Source: a virus
Taxonomy: Duplodnaviria; Heunggongvirae; Uroviricota; Caudoviricetes
Strand: one strand, 5' to 3'
IMG/VR virus record: IMGVR_UViG_2663762839_000016
Span: 1-13,591 of that record
Length of the DNA stretch: 13,591 nt
Part shown: positions 1,980 through 13,591 of the stretch, in pieces
Position numbering within the stretch: the stretch's first letter is position 1
Layout: each line of letters starts with the position of its first letter
The notes under the pieces: model-generated
Told to the model about the DNA's origin: nothing
Seen by the model: only the letters and a program-made list of their open reading frames with translations
The model's database searches: none
Translations under genes and position numbers: made by a program

Positions 1980-3088
1980 TTATTCCATTTCAAGATCATC
2001 AATCTTCACTTCGAGTTCAATACTGGTTGTAAAACCGTTATCCGGGCTGACGGTATGTGTCAGAGTCGTAATGGTCCATTCCGCATCATCTATCGGCTGT
2101 TTAAAACCACTGACCTTCACAGGCATTTCCGTGTAGAGATCTGCCCGCCCTTCCGCCAGTTGTAGCGAGAATGACGCAACGCCACGTTGCAGGCGTTCCC
2201 ACTGCATTTTCGCTGCCCGTTCAGCGTTGCTCCGGTTGGCATAAGTGCGATTAAGTACCAGCACGTTTTCATCCGTCCCCACCAGGTAATCGCCCTGCTT
2301 CGCTTCCGGCTCTTTCTTCTGCTTCTTAGTCCTGCGCTTACGCTTCACCGTAGTGCTTTCTTTCTTCGCGGGTTCGCGGGTTCGCGGGTATGCAACCAGC
2401 TGGCAATTACCCCCGTGTAAGCTCCGCGATCTGCCAGGGTAAAGCGGTGACTGTCGCCGTCCTTACGTGCGATAGTAATCACCGGCAGTGGTTTACCGCT
2501 GGCGCTTTTGCCCTGTCCCTGCCGGATGAATAACAGATTGCCATTTTTCACCGATGCAATGGCACCGTACTGGCGCGCCAGCCGCATCAAAAAACTGCCG
2601 TCACTCTCATTAGTCTGGTCTATATGCTCCACGGGCTTATCCGACAGGTCTTTACCCAGTGCCATCTTCAGCTTGTGCCGCGCGGCTATTTCCTTCACCA
2701 CTTCCCCGATGGTGGTGTTATGCCACGATTTTTCACGGCGGGTATTCAGCGTTTCCCGAAAATCAGCACTTCGCGCCCGGATAGTCAGGCGGTCCGGTGC
2801 GCCAGTGTGTTCAATCTCGTCCACCGTGAATGCCCCTTTCGGGAAAAGCGGCTGCCCCTTCCAGCCCAGCGCCAGCGTAATGACCGCACCACGGCGCGGC
2901 AGCACGATTTTTCCGTCGGCGTCGTCCAGATCCAGATCAAGCTGGTCCGCTTCAAAGCCTCGGTTATCCGTCAGCGTAAGCCCCATCAGGCGTTTGTCCA
3001 GCACAGTGGTGATATCCTTCCCCTCAATACTGATGCTGAATGCGGGAGTTTTGTTGCCTTTGTTAAGCAGTTCAGAGCTGAAATTCAC
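1980..3088 (-). pseudogene. P2 gpD-like tail protein, split by a frameshift into 247-aa (2345..3088) and 122-aa (1980..2348) pieces
   Basis: Both pieces are continuous in homology to the gpD family. The first ends ...HTREPANPRRKKALR* and the second continues KRKRRTKKQKKEPEAKQGDYLVG in another frame, overlapping by 4 nt. Confidence 0.7.
2365..2388. repeat. three perfect tandem copies of the 8-bp unit TTCGCGGG inside gene D, just upstream of the frame break
   Basis: Read directly: ttcgcggg ttcgcggg ttcgcggg. Confidence 0.9.
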
Positions 3089-3570
3089 GACAGCAGCCCT
3101 CCCACCGTTTTACTGATATCGCTTAAGGCAGACGTTGCCGTATCCTGCAAATTATTCAGCTGCGCACTGAGATCACCGAACATATCGGACATGGATTCAT
3201 CCACCCGTTTGAGCGACAGGGTAAACTCAATCCGGCGCGGCATACCATCGCGGAAAAACTCCGTTTTAGTCTGATTCAGTCCCTCAATCACATACATGCC
3301 GTAAATCGTGCCGCTGCCTTCAATCAGGGGCCATGCTTTTCCCTGTTCTGCCATCTGCTCCAGAGCCAGCAACGACAGCCTGCCGCCCGTTATCTCCGGC
3401 ATAAGAACACCAGAAAGCGTCAGCATGTCGTTGTCCGGTCCCAGAAATTGCGTGGACGGACGACGGTTTACCCGGCTGTTTTCCGCATGTCGCCAGCTGC
3501 GTTGATACTGCAGTTCCTGATACGGAACGGTGCGCAGCATAAACACGTACAATCCCAGCACCATCATCAT
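3085..3570 (-). CDS. P2 gpU-like tail protein (161 aa)
   Basis: Position between T and D; size close to the ~159 aa I recall for P2 gpU; start overlaps the T stop. Confidence 0.8.
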   Translation of the reverse strand: MMMVLGLYVFMLRTVPYQELQYQRSWRHAENSRVNRRPSTQFLGPDNDMLTLSGVLMPEITGGRLSLLALEQMAEQGKAWPLIEGSGTIYGMYVIEGLNQTKTEFFRDGMPRRIEFTLSLKRVDESMSDMFGDLSAQLNNLQDTATSALSDISKTVGGLLS

Positions 3571-5429
3571 GCGTCGTATCCCCCCTGATCGCTGTAGTTA
3601 CTCCTGGCTTTTGCCTTCAGCCTGCGTTCACGTTCATCAAGCTGGCGTGCCACCTCCCGCGCAATATCCTGCGCACTTTGTCCTGGCTGCGTCTGAATGA
3701 TGATCTGCGTCGGTGCCTCAATCCGGTGAACGGGCGGTACAGTGGCTGCACGACTCACCATCGCTTCGCCGCCTTTCGCGGGAAGTGCCAAAGGATGCAA
3801 TGGTGGAAGCTCTGCAGGCGCGGCAGCAACGCCCATCATTCCGGCAACAACGGCAGCCAGTGCAGCTGTATTTCTCCGGCTGGTCACATTTGCCGGGCCG
3901 TTAACAATTTCCGGCCCGTTTTCACCGACGATGCCAAACTGCCCGCGCGGGATATAGCCGCCGCTGTCATACATCCCCGCAAAGCCATATCCCCATGACG
4001 GAAAACCACCCGGTGGCATCATCACTTTACCGTCTGCATTCACCGTCGCAGGTTGCTGACGCGTCACGCTTTCCGGCAGTTTCGCCTTTGCAGCCTCTTT
4101 ACTGACAATGCCGAGTTTCTCCAGCAACCAGGAAACGCCGGATTTCAGGGAGTCCAGCGGATGCATGACCATATTCAGCCCTTCCGCCAGTGCCTCCCCG
4201 AATCGTCGCCCCATTGCCGCTGCACTCTGCAGTTCGGCAGAGGTCGACTTAACGGGCGTCAGCAGATCAGTAAACCAGCCCCACAGCGCCTGTACTTTGT
4301 CGCCAATCCACTGGAACACGGGCTTAAGCGGTTCGAATGCTGCACTGACGGGACCTGCCGCCGCTTTGAATCCTTCCACTACGCCACCAAGAAATGCGGT
4401 GATGGGTTGCCAGTATTTCCAGACAACCAGCGCCACGCCCGCCAGTGCAGTAACCACAAGACCTATCGGACTGAGCAGAGCACCTAACAGACCAGATACG
4501 GCATACAGGGCAACGCGCAGCATCGCCAGTGGACCAGATGCCAGTACTCGCAGCACCGTGCCTGCGGAGGCCAGTCCACCGCGCAGTACCGCCAGAGGAT
4601 TCATAAACATCACAGCAACAGCACGTAAACCGGATAATCCAGACCGCAAAAGTGCAACCGGCGCACCTGCTACAGTTTTCAGGACATTTCCCGTCAGTGA
4701 TGCCGTGCGGCGCAAAGACGACAACGGCGCAGTAAGTAAACCTGCGGCGTTGCCCGATGAAGCAAGCCCGCGTCGCAGCAGTGCAAGTGGTGCGCCAGCC
4801 AACCAGGACAACGCGCTGCTGGTTCGCGTTACTGCTGCCGTAACGGAAGGTAACGTTTTGATACCCAGCACAGAGAATCCCAGACGGATGACTGCCAGCG
4901 GCCCCAGCACAGCAGCCAACACCACAGCCAGGGTGCCGAGGCCCACAGTAACAGCAGCCACAACCGCGGCTACTTTCATCAGTGTGCCCGTCAGTTCAGG
5001 GTTAGCTTCTACCCAGCGACGCAACGCCCCCGTGATGCTTTTCACCGTGTACAGAATATCCATCAGCGGCTGGCGCAGCGTTTCGCCCAGGCTGCTGAAG
5101 GTGTTCTGCGCTCCGGTTTTGACCAGCAACCACTGCGCAGAAAGTGAGTCCTTGTTAATGTCGGATTCTTTCTGCATCGAACCGAGCGCATCATTGCCCG
5201 CTGTCAGTTTTAGCTGGCGCTGCAGTTCCGGCAGGTTGTTTGCCAGTTTCGCCGCATCATCGCCAAACTCTTTACCAAACAACATGGTCATGGCAGACAG
5301 GCGCTTATCCTGCGGCAGTGCGTTCACCTTCTCCAGTACGCGCTGGATAGTTCCCATCGCATCCTTCGTCAGCGGCATAACGTCAGTAACGGATGGCGGC
5401 CAGTGAAAGATGGTGGCGATATCAGCCAC
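3567..5429 (-). CDS. tail tape measure protein (gpT-like); ORF-track start is a GTG and the frame is continuous with the E -1 frame
   Basis: Long Ala/Gly/Leu-rich ORF with a hydrophobic central region, located between E and U. 620 aa versus the ~815 aa I recall for P2 gpT. No obvious SD before the GTG at 5429. Confidence 0.8.
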   Translation of the reverse strand: MADIATIFHWPPSVTDVMPLTKDAMGTIQRVLEKVNALPQDKRLSAMTMLFGKEFGDDAAKLANNLPELQRQLKLTAGNDALGSMQKESDINKDSLSAQWLLVKTGAQNTFSSLGETLRQPLMDILYTVKSITGALRRWVEANPELTGTLMKVAAVVAAVTVGLGTLAVVLAAVLGPLAVIRLGFSVLGIKTLPSVTAAVTRTSSALSWLAGAPLALLRRGLASSGNAAGLLTAPLSSLRRTASLTGNVLKTVAGAPVALLRSGLSGLRAVAVMFMNPLAVLRGGLASAGTVLRVLASGPLAMLRVALYAVSGLLGALLSPIGLVVTALAGVALVVWKYWQPITAFLGGVVEGFKAAAGPVSAAFEPLKPVFQWIGDKVQALWGWFTDLLTPVKSTSAELQSAAAMGRRFGEALAEGLNMVMHPLDSLKSGVSWLLEKLGIVSKEAAKAKLPESVTRQQPATVNADGKVMMPPGGFPSWGYGFAGMYDSGGYIPRGQFGIVGENGPEIVNGPANVTSRRNTAALAAVVAGMMGVAAAPAELPPLHPLALPAKGGEAMVSRAATVPPVHRIEAPTQIIIQTQPGQSAQDIAREVARQLDERERRLKAKARSNYSDQGGYDA

Positions 5430-7574: not shown

Positions 7575-7592
7575 TGTACCGTTATTCACACA
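7575..7592 (-). promoter_or_regulatory. candidate Ogr-dependent late promoter element (TGT-N12-ACA dyad) upstream of FI
   Basis: TGTACCGTTATTCACACA, centred ~85 bp upstream of the FI start codon; P2 late promoters carry TGT-N12-ACA centred near -55. Confidence 0.4.
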
Positions 7593-7640: not shown

Positions 7641-8213
7641 TCAGGGAGATTTATTGTTCTTATTTGCCGGAAATTTTCGATAAATGGTAGAAACGCCTAC
7701 ATCAAAAATCAGTGCAATACGCTGTCTTGATTCTCCGGCCTCGAGTAAACGCCCAATCTGTGCCCACTGTTCGCTGGTCAACTTAGGACGGCGTCCACCT
7801 ACTCTGCCTTTAGCACGAGCTGCAGCCAGCCCCGCCCTGGTACGTTCAACTATCAGTTCGCGTTCCATTTCAGCCAGGGCACCCATGACATGAAAAAAGA
7901 AACGGCCCATTGGGGTGCTGGTATCAATACTGTCAGTCAGGCTTCGGAAATTCACGCCACGCTGGCGCAGCTCTTCTATCAGCGTAACAAGATGCCGCAT
8001 ACTGCGCCCCAGTCTGTCCAGCTTCCAGACAACCAGCGTGTCTCCTGCCGATAGTGTCCTGAGCAGCTTTTTCAGCCCCGGTCTGTCGGACTTGGTGCCA
8101 CTGATTTTATCCTCAAAAATCCGCTCACATCCCGCACAGTTCAGTGCATTGCGTTGCAAATCGGTGTTCTGGTCATTTGTTGACACGCGTACATAACCAA
8201 TAAGCATGATCAT
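7641..8213 (-). CDS. serine DNA invertase of the Hin/Gin/Pin/Cin family
   Basis: MLIGYVRVSTNDQNTDLQRNAL...GDTLVVWKLDRLGRSMRHL...MGRFFFHVMGALAEMERELI... recognised as near-identical in pattern to Gin/Pin, with a C-terminal HTH. Confidence 0.9.
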   Translation of the reverse strand: MIMLIGYVRVSTNDQNTDLQRNALNCAGCERIFEDKISGTKSDRPGLKKLLRTLSAGDTLVVWKLDRLGRSMRHLVTLIEELRQRGVNFRSLTDSIDTSTPMGRFFFHVMGALAEMERELIVERTRAGLAAARAKGRVGGRRPKLTSEQWAQIGRLLEAGESRQRIALIFDVGVSTIYRKFPANKNNKSP

Positions 8214-8262
8214 CCCCCTGAATAAAAACCGGAGATGATGCCAGTTAGCCGTTATCTCTGCA

Positions 8263-8288
8263 TTTTCATAAACGTTGGTTTGGGAGAA
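8263..8288. other. invertase crossover site (hix/gix-like), pin-proximal
   Basis: TTTTCATAAACG-TT-GGTTTGGGAGAA; the right half-site and central TT are identical to the reverse complement of the site at 9873-9898. Confidence 0.7.
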
Positions 8289-8729
8289 GGCTCTGCATTA
8301 CCTGTTGGTGTGCCTGTTCCATGGCCTTCAGCCACACCGCCAACAGGCTGGCTGAAATGCAATGGTGCGCCTTTTTCTGCAGAAGAATACCCGGAACTGG
8401 CCAAGGCTTATCCGACAAATAAATTGCCTGATTTACGTGGTGAGTTTATTCGTGGATGGGATGATGGGCGCGGGGTTGATAATGGAAGAAGTATCCTGTC
8501 CTCTCAGAGTGACACATTACAAGACCACGGCCATAAGTCGATAAGGTTGCGATCTGTTGGCGCAAACGGGGGAAATATTCCAGTTCCCGATGGCGGCGCT
8601 GATTTCACTGGAGATGCTGACTTAATCAATGCGATTTCAGTCCATGCATTTAACGGTGGGGTTCCAAGAGTATCGGGAGAAACACGCCCCCGCAACATTG
8701 CATTTAACTACATCGTGAGGGCTGCATAA
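8277..8729 (+). CDS. alternative (currently unexpressed) tail-fibre C-terminal segment Hv'
   Basis: Begins at the G-L-G-E codons of the crossover site, in frame; ends ...NIAFNYIVRAA, matching the P2 H C-terminus as I recall it. The upstream ATG at 8235 lies outside the invertible segment and is probably not a real start. Confidence 0.7.
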   Translation, partial: GLGEGSALPVGVPVPWPSATPPTGWLKCNGAPFSAEEYPELAKAYPTNKLPDLRGEFIRGWDDGRGVDNGRSILSSQSDTLQDHGHKSIRLRSVGANGGNIPVPDGGADFTGDADLINAISVHAFNGGVPRVSGETRPRNIAFNYIVRAA

Positions 8730-9328
8730 TGACACAGGCAAAATTAAACAGTGAATTTATTGCCACAGTAGCGGGTGATATTACCGTCTATAACTATGAC
8801 AACACGACACGGGAATACATTTCATCATCAACAGAATATCTTGCCGTTGGCGTCGGTATCCCGGCATGTTCTTGTTTAGATGCACCAGTTACACATAAAG
8901 CTGGTTATGCAATCTGCCGTTCTGCAGATTTTAACTCATGGGAATATGTACCAGACCATCGCGGTGAAATCATCTATAGCACCGAAACAGGAGAATCGAA
9001 AGAAATCACAGCTCTGGGTGATTACCCTGAAAATACAACCACTATCGCCCCGTTAACGCCATATGATAAATGGGATGGTGAGAAATGGGTGACGGATACC
9101 GAGGCACAATATAGCGCCGCAGTGGACGCGGCAGAAATCCAACGCCAGTCACTGATTGATGCTGCAATGGCTTCCATTAGTCTGATTCAGCTGAAATTAC
9201 GGGCCGGACGGAATCTGACGCAGGCAGAAACCGCCCGACTTAACGCTGCGCTGGATTACATTGACGCGGTGACGGCAACTGATACCAGCACCGCGCCGGA
9301 TATCAATTGGCCTGAACTGTACGTCTAG
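8729..9328 (+). CDS. tail fibre assembly protein (Tfa/gpG-like, 199 aa), paired with Hv'
   Basis: ...WDGEKWVTDTEAQ...NAALDYIDAVTATDTSTAPDINWPE resembles lambda Tfa / P2 G-type chaperones; immediately downstream of Hv'. Confidence 0.75.
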   Translation: MTQAKLNSEFIATVAGDITVYNYDNTTREYISSSTEYLAVGVGIPACSCLDAPVTHKAGYAICRSADFNSWEYVPDHRGEIIYSTETGESKEITALGDYPENTTTIAPLTPYDKWDGEKWVTDTEAQYSAAVDAAEIQRQSLIDAAMASISLIQLKLRAGRNLTQAETARLNAALDYIDAVTATDTSTAPDINWPELYV

Positions 9329-9537
9329 CTTACCATTACCCACGTGGGTAGCCCATTGCTACCCGCCGCTCGTTTCATTCCCTCCGGAGGCGTCCCTAAA
9401 AACTTCAGAGCCATATCGTCATCGACGGGCTTAATATCATCAGGCAGAATGCCATTTGAACGGTATGCATTGAGTAATACTGCCGGATAAAATTGATTCG
9501 TTGTCGCGCTATAAAAGTAAATATTCATTATCACCAT
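9325..9537 (-). CDS. short tail-fibre-assembly-like ORF (70 aa) paired with the expressed fibre C-terminus; possibly truncated
   Basis: N-terminus MNIYFYSATTNQFYPAVLL... looks like a fibre-assembly chaperone N-terminus, but the ORF is about a third the length of its inverted partner. Confidence 0.45.
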   Translation of the reverse strand: MVIMNIYFYSATTNQFYPAVLLNAYRSNGILPDDIKPVDDDMALKFLGTPPEGMKRAAGSNGLPTWVMVS

Positions 9538-10670
9538 CCCTTCGCATACCAGTTACATGTCAAATTTGCCGGATTAACGTTATTACCCTCTGCCGTTGCG
9601 CAGCCAACCCTGAATTTTGAGTTGCTGACAGGGAATGCCTGTGAAATCTCGGCATATGACGTGTCATTCGGATCCGAGCTAATTAAAACGAACGCACAAC
9701 GGTTCGGGAATGGGATGACAAAATCTCCATCGCCGTTTCCATAATTACCGCGCCCCCATTGCTCAAGAAATCCATCTGGCGTCAACCGCCACCCGTAATC
9801 TGCTTTCAGCGATGTCCATTTGCTCATATCAGGGATCTGATTTGCCCCAATCCCAACATCCCTTTTTGCCGCTTCTCCCAAACCAAGGTATGTGAGAAGA
9901 CCAGCTACATCCTTTCCACTCAAATTAGTCAGCGTATTGTCCAGCGGTTGTTTACCTGCCAGCGCATTAAGCATTGTCGTGGCAAAGTTCGGGTCATTCC
10001 CCAGCGCTGCCGCCAGTTCGTTCAGTGTATCCAGTGCCGCAGGTGCAGAACCCACCATTGCCGCAATCGCCGATTTCACAAATGCCGTGGTGGCAATCTG
10101 TGTATTGTTGACCGACTGTGCCGCCGTGGGGGCTGTTGGCGTTCCGGTGAGTGCCGGACTCGACAACGGTGCTTTTAGTGCCAGCGCATTGTTAATGGTG
10201 GTACTGAAATTCGGATCATTGTTAATGGCTGCGGCTATTTCTTTCAGCGTGTCCAGCGTGGCTGGCGCACCATTAATAAGGGCCGTCAGTGCCGCCTGTA
10301 CAAACGCAGTGGTCGCAACCTGCGTGGTATTATTCCCCGCCGCTGGCGTTGGCGCTTTGGGGGTTCCGGTAAATGTCGGGCTGGCTTTTGGCGCGTACTG
10401 TGAATGCGGGTCCGGTGCGGCAAGATGTTTTGCCATCTGATCATCCGCGTACACCTTCAGCGCAACCTGCTTTAAACGCGGCTGCGTCACCGTGCCGTCA
10501 GTGCGCATCACGCTGCGAAACTCCGACAGGTCCACATCAGGCCAGAACGGCGTGTTTCTGATGATTTCCGCCTGTTCCGGTGCCTGTTCTGGCGCAACAA
10601 ACTTCATGCTGCTTTCTCCTGAAATAAAGGGCGGTGGACGGGGTTTTGATGTGGTAGAGCCTTTCGCCAC
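9531..10670 (-). CDS. tail fibre protein (gpH-like repeat region and variable C-terminus) with an N-terminal ~70 aa that looks gpL-like; probable L'::'H fusion
   Basis: Residues ~80-260 match the P2 H central repeats (PALTGTPTAPTA...NTQIATTAFV...ALDTLNELAAALGNDPNFATTMLNALAGKQP). The N-terminus FWPDVDLSEFRSVMRTDGTVTQPRLKQ does not resemble a fibre N-terminus and lies where gene L follows M in P2. Confidence 0.7.
   Translation of the reverse strand: MAKGSTTSKPRPPPFISGESSMKFVAPEQAPEQAEIIRNTPFWPDVDLSEFRSVMRTDGTVTQPRLKQVALKVYADDQMAKHLAAPDPHSQYAPKASPTFTGTPKAPTPAAGNNTTQVATTAFVQAALTALINGAPATLDTLKEIAAAINNDPNFSTTINNALALKAPLSSPALTGTPTAPTAAQSVNNTQIATTAFVKSAIAAMVGSAPAALDTLNELAAALGNDPNFATTMLNALAGKQPLDNTLTNLSGKDVAGLLTYLGLGEAAKRDVGIGANQIPDMSKWTSLKADYGWRLTPDGFLEQWGRGNYGNGDGDFVIPFPNRCAFVLISSDPNDTSYAEISQAFPVSNSKFRVGCATAEGNNVNPANLTCNWYAKGW
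9873..9898. other. invertase crossover site (hix/gix-like) inside the tail fibre gene
   Basis: TTCTCCCAAACC-AA-GGTATGTGAGAA; its reverse complement shares the 12-bp half-site GGTTTGGGAGAA and the central dinucleotide with the site at 8263-8288. Confidence 0.7.
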
Positions 10671-10702
10671 CCCGTGCCGCCCGTGCGCGGGGGCACGTTC
10701 TG

Positions 10703-11107
10703 TCAGCGGCTGTCATTGCGCAGTCTGCGCTCCAGCTGCTGTTTGTCTTTTTTCACGCCACAGCGGGGATCGAGCTGTAACGCATGGTTGAGATGGTTAA
10801 GGGCAGAAGCCGGATTGCTTTCACTCAGGACAGCGCCAATCGCTTTATGCAGACGCGCCCGTGACTGGTCCGGCATATCCAGACCGTCTGTCAGCTCCAG
10901 CGTCTGCAACAACAGATCGGCATCAAAGCCGGTGGCGGCAAGCATTGCGCTCTGCGCCGCGTCTGCCATTTCCTCTGCCAGCACGGTCTGCACATTGCGG
11001 TTACCCAGCGGCATCACCCAGCCATGACGCAGGGCATGACGCCCGATCTCCAGCGCCCCGGCATAATCTCCGGCATCAATGCGCCACAGCATCACGTACA
11101 TCAGCAC
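10703..11107 (-). pseudogene. C-terminal fragment of terminase small/endonuclease subunit (gpM-like)
   Basis: MYVMLWRIDAGDYAGALEIGRHALRHG...LELTDGLDMPDQSRARLHK...GVKKDKQQLERRL resembles the C-terminal half of P2 gpM as I recall it; the N-terminal half and all genes between A and M are missing. Confidence 0.55.
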
Positions 11108-12753
11108 GTCATGCCAAAGAAGCGGAATTGCTGAACACGATGCAGAGACGCCCAGGCATTAACGTATTCAGCGTTATCACGCAGGGATTTACCCGTTTCC
11201 TTGCTGATCTCGCCAGCCAGACCACGCCCGTCAATGTTCTTACTGATGTATTTCGCGATGTAGCTTGTTGGCGTACCTTTGCGCGGGTTTATCAGCTCAG
11301 ACTTAAAGCGTGGCCCCGTGTTATTGCCCAGCTCCTCGCGGTCTTCACGGATGGCAAACTTACGCAACAATGCAGTAATGGCGCGGCGGTCTTTTTTACG
11401 CATGAAACACAACAGGTGCCAGTGAACTGTGCCGTCATGATGCGGCTCAGCCACCCGCACGCCATACCAGCGCAACCCGGCTTTGTGCATAGCCTTACGA
11501 AATGCAGCAAACATGCCGACCAGATAATCGCTGCTTTGTCTTACTGTCGCGTTGGTCCAGGTCGGGTTTGGCCTGCCGTTATTTAGCGTGGAATGGAAAC
11601 GTGACGGACAGGTGATGGTGTAGAAAACGGCGCAGTCACCACGCATTTCCGCGATAAGCTCCAGGCCTTTAACACAGGCCATCATCTCATTGCGGCGATG
11701 CGCCGGGTTGCTGCTGCTGGCGTTTACCACATCCTCCATGTTCAGCGTGTCGCCGTCTTCGTTCACCAGTTCATGAGAACGGAAAAACTCCAGCGACTTA
11801 CGGCGCTGCTCACGTTTATGCATCACGGCTTCATAGCTGACATAGGGAGATGCTTTTTTGCTGACCAGGCAGACAGCACGCAACTGCTCTTCCCACCATT
11901 CGCAACGCATCTTCCATAATTTCCGATACCACCAGTCGGCGCACAGCATACGCGCCAGCGAACCCGGAATGAGTTCATAGGGCACAGGTTTGCGGCGGTT
12001 TCTTTTCCGGCGGAGTTGCTCAAACGCAGGCGGTATGACATCCAGTCGCAGGGTTTCTGCAGCCACCTTTTCCCATGTCTTGCGGATTTCTTCTGGCTTA
12101 ACATCATCGGAGGCGTACAAATCACCACAAGCGGCATCAAGACACATGCTCATATGCGCAGCGACAAGGGTAGACAGGCGTTTCACCTGATCCTGACTCA
12201 TTTCAGGCAGGATCAGCAGACCGTCCAGCCCTTCATGGCTTGCCATAAAACGAAAAGATGCAGATAGCTGGCTGTCGCGTACATGCTCCAGTCGTTCCAG
12301 ACATGGCTTAATCGTCTCACGCAAATAGCGGGAATAAGCCTTTGGCCTGCCCAGGCTGCTGAAATATTCAATACGTTGCATCAGCGGCTTGCTGATATGG
12401 GAAGGCTGGGCGTTGACGTCGGCCAGAATGACCATGTCCGGATTAAAACGCTGCTGCTCATGCGCCATCTTTGCCCGGCTAATGAGCTTATCCTGCTCCA
12501 TTTCGCGTTGGACAGGATCACGGGATTCATTAAAGAAATAACGCTCCCAGACCTGATCACTCAGTGCCTCGCGGCGCAGTTGTTCCTGCTCGTTATCAGT
12601 AGCGTACAGAGTGATCAGGTTTGAAAGCGCAGAAACCGGCGCAACTTCCGCCGGGTCCAGATAAGGGTTAATGGCCTTTTTCGGGCTGTTCCATGAGAAC
12701 GATGCGGCAGCTTCGTTAAAGCCGCAGCAGTTGTTCATATCGGCATGACTCAT
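11101..12753 (-). pseudogene. rolling-circle replication initiator (gpA-like), C-terminally truncated
   Basis: HUH motif ([15 protein letters not shown]) and paired catalytic tyrosines ([12 protein letters not shown]) are present. The ORF stops about 35 aa after the Y motif, whereas I recall P2 gpA as ~761 aa. Confidence 0.7.
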
Positions 12754-12994
12754 GCACGTACTCCGTACACGGCAGAACTATCCACGCCACGCGAATAATC
12801 AAATCCCACCCAGCAGCGCGGCCCGGAAACAGCAATGATTTCTGTTGCTGATTTACCCTCGCCAGCTGCCACACCGATGCTGCGTTTTGCCTTGATGTAG
12901 TGGTGAGTAAAATTGCGATACAGCGAACGGATCAGGGATGTGTCACTGTTAGAAACAATGACCGGATGTCCTTCTGATGACCGATGTTCAAGAA
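12750..12994 (-). pseudogene. 5'-truncated phage gene fragment immediately upstream of A (the position of gene B in P2)
   Basis: ORF overlaps the A start by 4 nt; its apparent start codons lie within fliR-derived sequence, so the native 5' end is missing. Identity not recognised. Confidence 0.3.
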
Positions 12995-13591
12995 ATTGCC
13001 CCATCATTACCTGCCAACGATGTTCCTGTTTTTTCGTTCTTTGCTCTGTGGCTGGCCGTACAGCAGATCCTGATCGGTATTGCGCTTGGTTTTACCATGC
13101 AATTTGCCTTTGCCGCTGTGCGAACCGCTGGCGAAATTATCGGTCTGCAAATGGGGCTGTCATTTGCGACATTTGTCGATCCGGCCAGCCATCTTAATAT
13201 GCCCGTTTTAGCGCGTATCATGGATATGCTGGCGTTACTGCTGTTCCTGACATTTAACGGTCATTTATGGTTGATTTCACTGCTAGTCGATACCTTTCAC
13301 ACCCTGCCGATTGGTGGCGAACCGTTGAACAGCAATGCGTTTCTGGCACTCACCAAAGCAGGGAGTTTGATTTTCCTTAACGTGCTGATGCTGGCATTAC
13401 CGCTCATTACTCTGCTGCTGACCCTGAATCTGGCATTAGGCTTACTTAATCGTATGGCCCCGCAATTATCCATTTTTGTTATTGGATTTCCATTAACTCT
13501 GACTGTCGGTATCTCTTTAATGGCGGCATTAATGCCGTTAATTGCGCCTTTTTGCGAACATTTATTCAGTGAAATTTTTAATTTGCTGGCT
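12995..13591 (+). CDS. fliR: flagellar export-gate protein FliR, 5'-truncated (the N-terminal ~third missing); continues past the window end
   Basis: In-frame translation [77 protein letters not shown]...[12 protein letters not shown] matches enterobacterial FliR from about its first third onward; no native start codon or upstream fli sequence is present. Confidence 0.8.

Follow-up and report, generated by a model that had tools for sequence, protein, structure and literature searches.

An open reading frame that begins as a head gene and continues as a tail fibre gene can be taken as a new fusion protein or as the scar left by a deletion. We asked which of these applies to a frame of this kind in a 13,591-nt stretch of DNA (the window), which is identical to the reverse of the last 13.6 kb of contig CDRI01000009.1 in the Escherichia coli draft assembly GCA_000946855.1. 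The window opens with smpB and the tmRNA gene ssrA and then enters the tail end of a P2-like prophage, whose genes ogr, D, U, T, E, FII and FI follow ssrA on the minus strand. After FI come a serine invertase, an invertible fibre segment, the chimeric frame, a fragment of M ('M), a truncated A (A'), a fragment of dam (dam') and fliR. The element is integrated directly after smpB-ssrA, at the same place as the intact prophage of NZ_CP168035.1, and intact prophages of this P2-like family occupy this site in several E. coli genomes. The prophage of NZ_CP168035.1 (L002), about 97% identical, served as the main intact reference, and four contigs with a parent-type fibre (L006-L009) served as additional references. 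The attR of L002 carries a duplicate of the 46-bp 3' end of ssrA; within the window, none of int, C, cox and attR was found. Between ssrA and ogr lies a 160-aa open reading frame (1184-1666) that is kept in the intact relatives and has no Pfam hit; a single annotation in those relatives calls it 'BRCT domain-containing protein', and the others call it hypothetical. It is probably prophage cargo adjoining attL.

The features of the chimera and its immediate surroundings are as follows.

9531 to 10607, minus strand: the chimera L'(1-50)::'H(160-467), 358 aa from the native gpL ATG, RefSeq WP_205248973.1.
10608 to 10670, minus strand: the 21-codon extension of the 379-aa frame, which is the M-L spacer with the L ribosome-binding site GGAGAAAG.
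10458 to 10607, minus strand: gpL (head completion protein) codons 1-50, covering PF05926 profile positions 1-36 of 139.
9531 to 10457, minus strand: gpH (tail fibre) codons 160-467, with two fibre repeats of ~75 aa, the crossover site and the PF21882 C-terminal domain.
10458 to 10461, unstranded: the L/H deletion junction, a 4-nt microhomology (GCTG on the minus strand, CAGC on the plus strand) common to L codons 49-50 and H codons 158-159.
10703 to 11101, minus strand: 'M, a 132-aa C-terminal piece of the small terminase subunit that immediately precedes the chimera.
11101 to 12753, minus strand: A', the replication endonuclease, of which a second deletion (6,843 bp) leaves about 547 codons.

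A preliminary description of this DNA, made without database searches, had proposed a 379-aa in-frame fusion whose first ~70 residues resemble gpL. The in-frame fusion was borne out, and its length was not. The frame found mechanically (9531-10670, minus strand) opens with GTG, whereas the native L start is the ATG at 10607, on which the gene caller of the public record and the annotation of the intact relative agree, and which gives 358 aa. The 21 codons in front of it are most likely not translated. In the 379-aa numbering, residues 22-71 are those of gpL, identical at 50 of 50 positions to residues 1-50 of the intact head completion protein of L002 (gene at L002 23676-24140), while the first 21 residues of the proposed gpL-like part are spacer. 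A profile search, which had been suggested as a check, recovered Pfam PF05926 (Phage_GPL) at residues 37-72 with 35.3 bits (E 1.3e-8), above the gathering cut-off of 27 bits. The gpL part also aligned with residues 30-62 of gpL of phage P2 itself (42% identity over 33 aa, E 9e-7). Intact gpL proteins are 154-169 aa long and cover all PF05926 positions 1-139.

The other half was likewise assigned to the fibre. From KVYADDQMAKH onward the frame was 98% identical (308/313) to residues 155-467 of P0003, an intact 467-aa E. coli fibre annotated 'phage tail protein', and the gpH part was 45% identical to residues 147-366 of P2 gpH (E 3e-39). The expectation that the sequence from YADDQMAKH corresponds to the central part of H was thus correct, and the C-terminal part belongs to H as well: PF21882 (Gp53-like_C) was found at residues 296-379 of the 379-aa numbering. 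PF12571, which spans residues 1-150 of the intact fibre P0003, had no match in the chimera in the Pfam search. Since the DNA on either side of the junction is 96-100% identical to the L or H genes found in hundreds of E. coli prophages, the similarity of both halves lies far beyond chance. A sequence search of the PDB returned matches to the fibre repeats only (9d93, 9cuy, 9k09), and the 50-residue gpL part matched nothing there. The chimera is a member of neither the gpL nor the gpH family, with PF05926 incomplete and PF12571 missing.

We mapped the junction by megablast with a 261-nt probe that spans it. The hits fell into two sets, one of H type reaching up to 10461 and one of L type starting from 10458, each up to 100% identical. 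In a three-way alignment of the coding strands, L reads ...AAGCAGGTTGCGCTG/TCGGCA, H reads ...GCACTGGAGCTG/AAGGTGTAC and the window reads ...AAGCAGGTTGCGCTGAAGGTGTAC. This alignment shows a clean switch at the shared GCTG, which places the cross-over within it. The breakpoint had been predicted near 10448-10456, and the megablast sets and the alignment moved it by 2-10 nt to 10458-10461. The end-points in L and H share a codon phase, and the fused frame is open.

Compared with L002, 5,969 bp of DNA are missing at this point. The deletion takes two thirds of L at its 3' end, H up to codon 159 and twelve whole genes between them (X, holin, lysozyme, LysA, LysB, LysC, R, S, V, W, J and I), all of which sit between L and H in intact L002. 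The loss of every gene between L and H had been proposed from the window and is confirmed by this comparison. The baseplate genes V, W, J and I lie between L and H in both L002 and L006; they are absent from the window, so that the element has no baseplate genes. In E. coli P2-like prophages the two stretches that flank the junction are separated by about 6 kb and have the order and orientation seen here. In the fibre of P2, the N-terminal part is the anchor to the baseplate. The predicted deletion of this baseplate-binding region of H was also found, since the PF12571 domain (residues 1-150) lies entirely within the lost residues 1-159.

The 3' end of the chimeric frame belongs to an invertible segment with the following parts.

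9873 to 9898, unstranded: the crossover site in H, TTCTCCCAAACC AA GGTATGTGAGAA, at the boundary of the constant and variable fibre parts.
8263 to 8288, unstranded: the second crossover site, inverted, TTTTCATAAACG TT GGTTTGGGAGAA, at the start of the silent alternative C-terminus.
7641 to 8207, minus strand: a serine DNA invertase of 188 aa, apparently intact, with a Resolvase N-terminal domain and HTH_7.
8238 to 8729, plus strand: a silent, promoterless alternative fibre C-terminus with the tail-collar domain PF07484.
8729 to 9328, plus strand: the tail-fibre assembly protein (Caudo_TAP) of the alternative C-terminus.
9325 to 9528, minus strand: a 67-aa Caudo_TAP-like open reading frame downstream of the chimera, native to this segment type and also found after intact H in L007.

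The invertase matched PF00239 with 180.6 bits and PF02796 with 58.8 bits, and has a serine at position 9 in MLIGYVRVS. The best inverted repeat of the region pairs 8263-8289 with 9872-9898, with site arms that are 85% complementary, and in the chimera the crossover site falls at ...LLTYLGLGE.... Inversion of 8275-9886 in silico gave an in-frame chimera of 391 aa that shares its first 245 residues with the present form and ends in the tail-collar domain. The two inverted 26-bp sites, the invertase and this in-frame alternative agree with the preliminary description, which had the chimera still carrying the invertible C-terminus. Judged by its sequence, the switch is complete: its invertase, its two crossover sites, its two alternative C-termini and their assembly genes are all intact. 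Inversion of the 1.6-kb segment by the invertase may still be possible and would change the C-terminus of the frame, though without consequence.

Against the intact relatives we counted five lesions: a duplication in D, the E'/T deletion, the L/H deletion, the M/A deletion and the dam'/fliR join. In D, an 8-bp tandem duplication of GGTTCGCG near 2360-2397, present in three copies against two in the relatives, causes a frameshift that splits the gene into two open reading frames (1980-2348 and 2345-3088). At E'/T about 1.33 kb are deleted, with the junction at 5364-5371 (within the frame 3567-5429) and short imperfect homology; this takes away the 3' portion of the E' frameshift extension and shortens the tape-measure gene T by about 430 N-terminal codons, so that 596-620 of the original 1,025 aa remain. 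The M/A deletion of 6,843 bp has its junction at 11111-11113 and loses 5' M, N, O, P, Q, the cargo genes and the 3' third of A, and A' stops three codons past the junction (…FFGMTC*). In this region (11095-11115) the TGA of A' overlaps the ATG of the 132-aa 'M as TGATG, directly upstream of the chimera. This stop-start overlap is accidental.

The fifth lesion, at 12994/12995, links the final 81 codons of dam to fliR, which begins there at its nucleotide 160, with neither microhomology nor an IS element at the joint, and the contig ends 597 bp later. In K-12, fliR (2.023 Mb) and smpB (2.755 Mb) are both on the plus strand, as they are in the window, and fliR and ssrA are about 730 kb apart. An order of ssrA, prophage and 'fliR with both on the plus strand cannot have come from one deletion or one inversion; it points to a duplication joint, a translocation or a chimera.

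Taken over the whole element, the essential genes Q, P, O, N, X, the lysis genes, R, S, V, W, J and I are missing, and M, L, H, A, T, E' and D are broken. The element is a defective (cryptic) P2-like prophage and is dead. We also considered whether it could be a tailocin, because sheath, tube and fibre are kept, and rejected this reading: it has no baseplate, R, S or X, its T is without ~430 N-terminal codons and its D is frameshifted. Three of the lesions are deletion junctions between genes on the same strand. At L/H the frame is continuous, at M/A it runs into a stop, and at E'/T the gene caller starts T' downstream of the junction. One in-frame junction out of three is the chance expectation. 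Other members of the family at ssrA carry lesions of their own. In L003 (14125-15637) a truncated H is joined to a partial portal gene by an independent deletion, and in L009 (12482-14140) an IS-type transposase stands in place of the region from the invertase to T.

We next considered whether the chimeric frame could be expressed. Its favourable features are a long uninterrupted frame, a good native ribosome-binding site and a start codon. In phage P2, P_O lies upstream of O and drives the O operon, which includes L, and P_V lies upstream of V and drives the V operon, which includes H. The regions of both promoters, together with the early region, are deleted or absent from the window. A scan for TGT-N12-ACA elements returned 3 against 3.7 expected, which is the chance level, and only the element at 7575-7592 is in promoter position. 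The centre of this element is about 85 nt from the FI start on the upstream side, against 83 nt for the P_F site of P2; by this match in position, only the FI operon keeps a late promoter. With ogr intact (1693-1911), the FI-FII-E operon may still be inducible, though unable to build a tail.

On the strand of the chimera, the sequence upstream consists of 'M, A' and dam', followed by antisense fliR. Scans of 9400-13591 for sigma-70 promoters and terminators gave counts no higher than in shuffled sequence, and the consensus scan found no sigma-70-like site on the minus strand between the chimera and 13136. The nearest minus-strand match (10/12, 13163-13136) is inside fliR and is a conceivable source of fortuitous read-through. 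Because the late promoters and the early region are lost and no minus-strand site is nearby, expression of the chimera would need fortuitous transcription. We infer from the sequence that the frame would be silent or at most weakly transcribed. Even if the product were made, it could not assemble, since it is without the baseplate-proximal domain and the element encodes no baseplate.

The junction was also rare. The exact 358-aa protein was found on one contig only, and the other members of its 90% cluster are all intact or partial fibres. No site in the 5,426 complete genomes of E. coli covered the junction probe, exact-pattern searches of GTDB species representatives and of metagenome contigs were likewise negative, and a literature search returned nothing specific to this locus. 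The broken fliR and a junction missing from the complete E. coli genomes had raised the thought of a Shigella origin, which was dropped because the matching contig belongs to an E. coli draft assembly. As each half has kept 96-100% identity to working genes, the deletion appears to be recent and confined to one isolate. In RefSeq the protein (WP_205248973.1) is named 'head completion/stabilization protein', whereas tail fibre makes up 86% of its length. NCBIfam gave no match for the chimera, the intact fibre or intact gpL, so the name is not explained by NCBIfam. It is a misleading name, set by the first 50 residues.

Comparison with known systems placed each part of the locus. Like gpL of P2 and the homologue in E. 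coli prophages, the chimera is positioned directly downstream of M and uses the same start codon and ribosome-binding site. Unlike them, it keeps only 36 of the 139 profile positions, and with the remaining two thirds of gpL deleted it cannot be a head completion protein. With gpH-type fibres of P2 it shares the central repeats, the gp53-like C-terminal domain and the downstream assembly frames; it differs in being without the whole N-terminal domain, in an element without V, W, J and I. The attached switch resembles segments of the Din family (Mu Gin/G, P1 Cin/C and e14 Pin/P) in its serine invertase, its two inverted 26-bp sites with an AA/TT core, the position of the crossover at the boundary of constant and variable parts, and its two C-termini, each with an assembly gene and both in frame. 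At the level of these features it is a predicted fibre cassette of the Din type (Gin/Cin/Pin). In contrast to those segments, the constant part here is fused to a fragment of a head gene, where they have a fibre gene that is whole or only truncated.

The defective prophage e14 of E. coli K-12 carries pin and its invertible segment beside a 5'-truncated fibre gene, and is the nearest analogue of the chimera with its switch. Cryptic P2-like remnants have long been known, among them the ogr-D' remnant in derivatives of K-12 and, in E. coli B, a defective prophage related to P2. The present element is like them in its tRNA-like attachment site, its successive deletions and the retention of tail-end genes and ogr. 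It is unlike them in that its set of deletions is specific to the strain, the sheath, tube and invertase genes are kept, and one junction is in frame. The decay of prophages by deletion in general is the subject of a review (PMC6379469).

We conclude that the chimera is very probably a chance in-frame deletion scar of a decaying P2-like prophage, an ordinary pseudogene remnant without function. In this reading, a P2-like prophage of a single E. coli isolate, situated at the ssrA 3' end, lost about 5.97 kb through an illegitimate, microhomology-mediated deletion with end-points in L codon 50 and H codon 159/160. The end-points fell into the same codon phase by chance. Due to this shared phase, the native L start and ribosome-binding site now open the 358-aa frame, which runs from L into the repeats of the fibre shaft, the invertase crossover site and the receptor-binding C-terminus. 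The product, if made, would not be mountable on a tail and would have no function. That the pseudogene has no stop codons yet would be explained by the recent date of the deletion.

Two other accounts concern how the junction arose. One is that it is an assembly or library chimera in GCA_000946855.1. This is a short-read draft contig, the junction is in one record only, and the contig ends 597 bp past a dam'/fliR join whose topology is hard to explain. Assemblers, however, join at repeats of at least k-mer length and not at a 4-nt microhomology. The three separate internal deletions preserve the gene order and strand of the prophage, as real deletions do, and other strains have different deletions in the same family (the H/partial portal join of L003 and the IS-associated loss in L009). 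We regard an artefact as highly improbable. The other account is illegitimate recombination between two P2-like prophages in one cell, which would give the same product with the same consequences. Several P2-like prophages per E. coli genome are common (genomes with a match had a median of 2 matching places and a maximum of 10), and the two sides of the junction differ in identity, with 96.4% against 97.6% to L002 and 98.6% against 99.2% to L001. These differences are nevertheless within the normal mosaic variation of the family, the order and orientation are exactly those of a single prophage (FI-invertase-H, then L-M, then A-dam), and a single deletion is more parsimonious. An origin from two prophages is in our view extremely unlikely.

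The remaining account accepts the deletion and gives its product a use. The chimera would be expressed as a free, baseplate-less, phase-variable fibre fragment that occupies or masks a receptor (superinfection exclusion) or acts as an adhesin, for example, with the gpL residues serving as a start codon and leader. An open 358-aa frame with native ribosome-binding site and ATG would permit this, as would a complete invertase switch whose alternative 391-aa form is in frame, and the repeats and C-terminal domain are 98% identical to those of a working fibre. Against this, the DNA that bears P_O and P_V in P2 is deleted along with the early region, and the junction is found in a single isolate. 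The four further inactivating lesions in the element mean that there is no sign of maintenance. The fragment would also have no path to the cell surface, because it lacks a signal peptide and a route of secretion, and the element has lost its lysis genes. We consider a useful fragment very unlikely. In its specific form, read-through transcription and translation from the gpL start would yield a trimeric fibre fragment free of any baseplate, with a receptor-binding end switched by the invertase; the chances of this are slim indeed. If it were true, the fragment could interfere with the adsorption of related phages, and the locus could also donate two host-range modules to incoming P2-like phages by recombination.

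Read as a deletion scar, the chimera is biologically minor and is a textbook case of prophage decay through short-homology deletions. It carries a caution for annotation, as surveys and automated pipelines could count WP_205248973.1 as a novel GPL-fibre domain architecture, and one deletion junction in three will mimic a 'new' fusion gene by chance. The locus also shows that an invertible host-range cassette can outlive the other virion genes, and from such a remnant the cassette could be recovered by recombination with an infecting phage.
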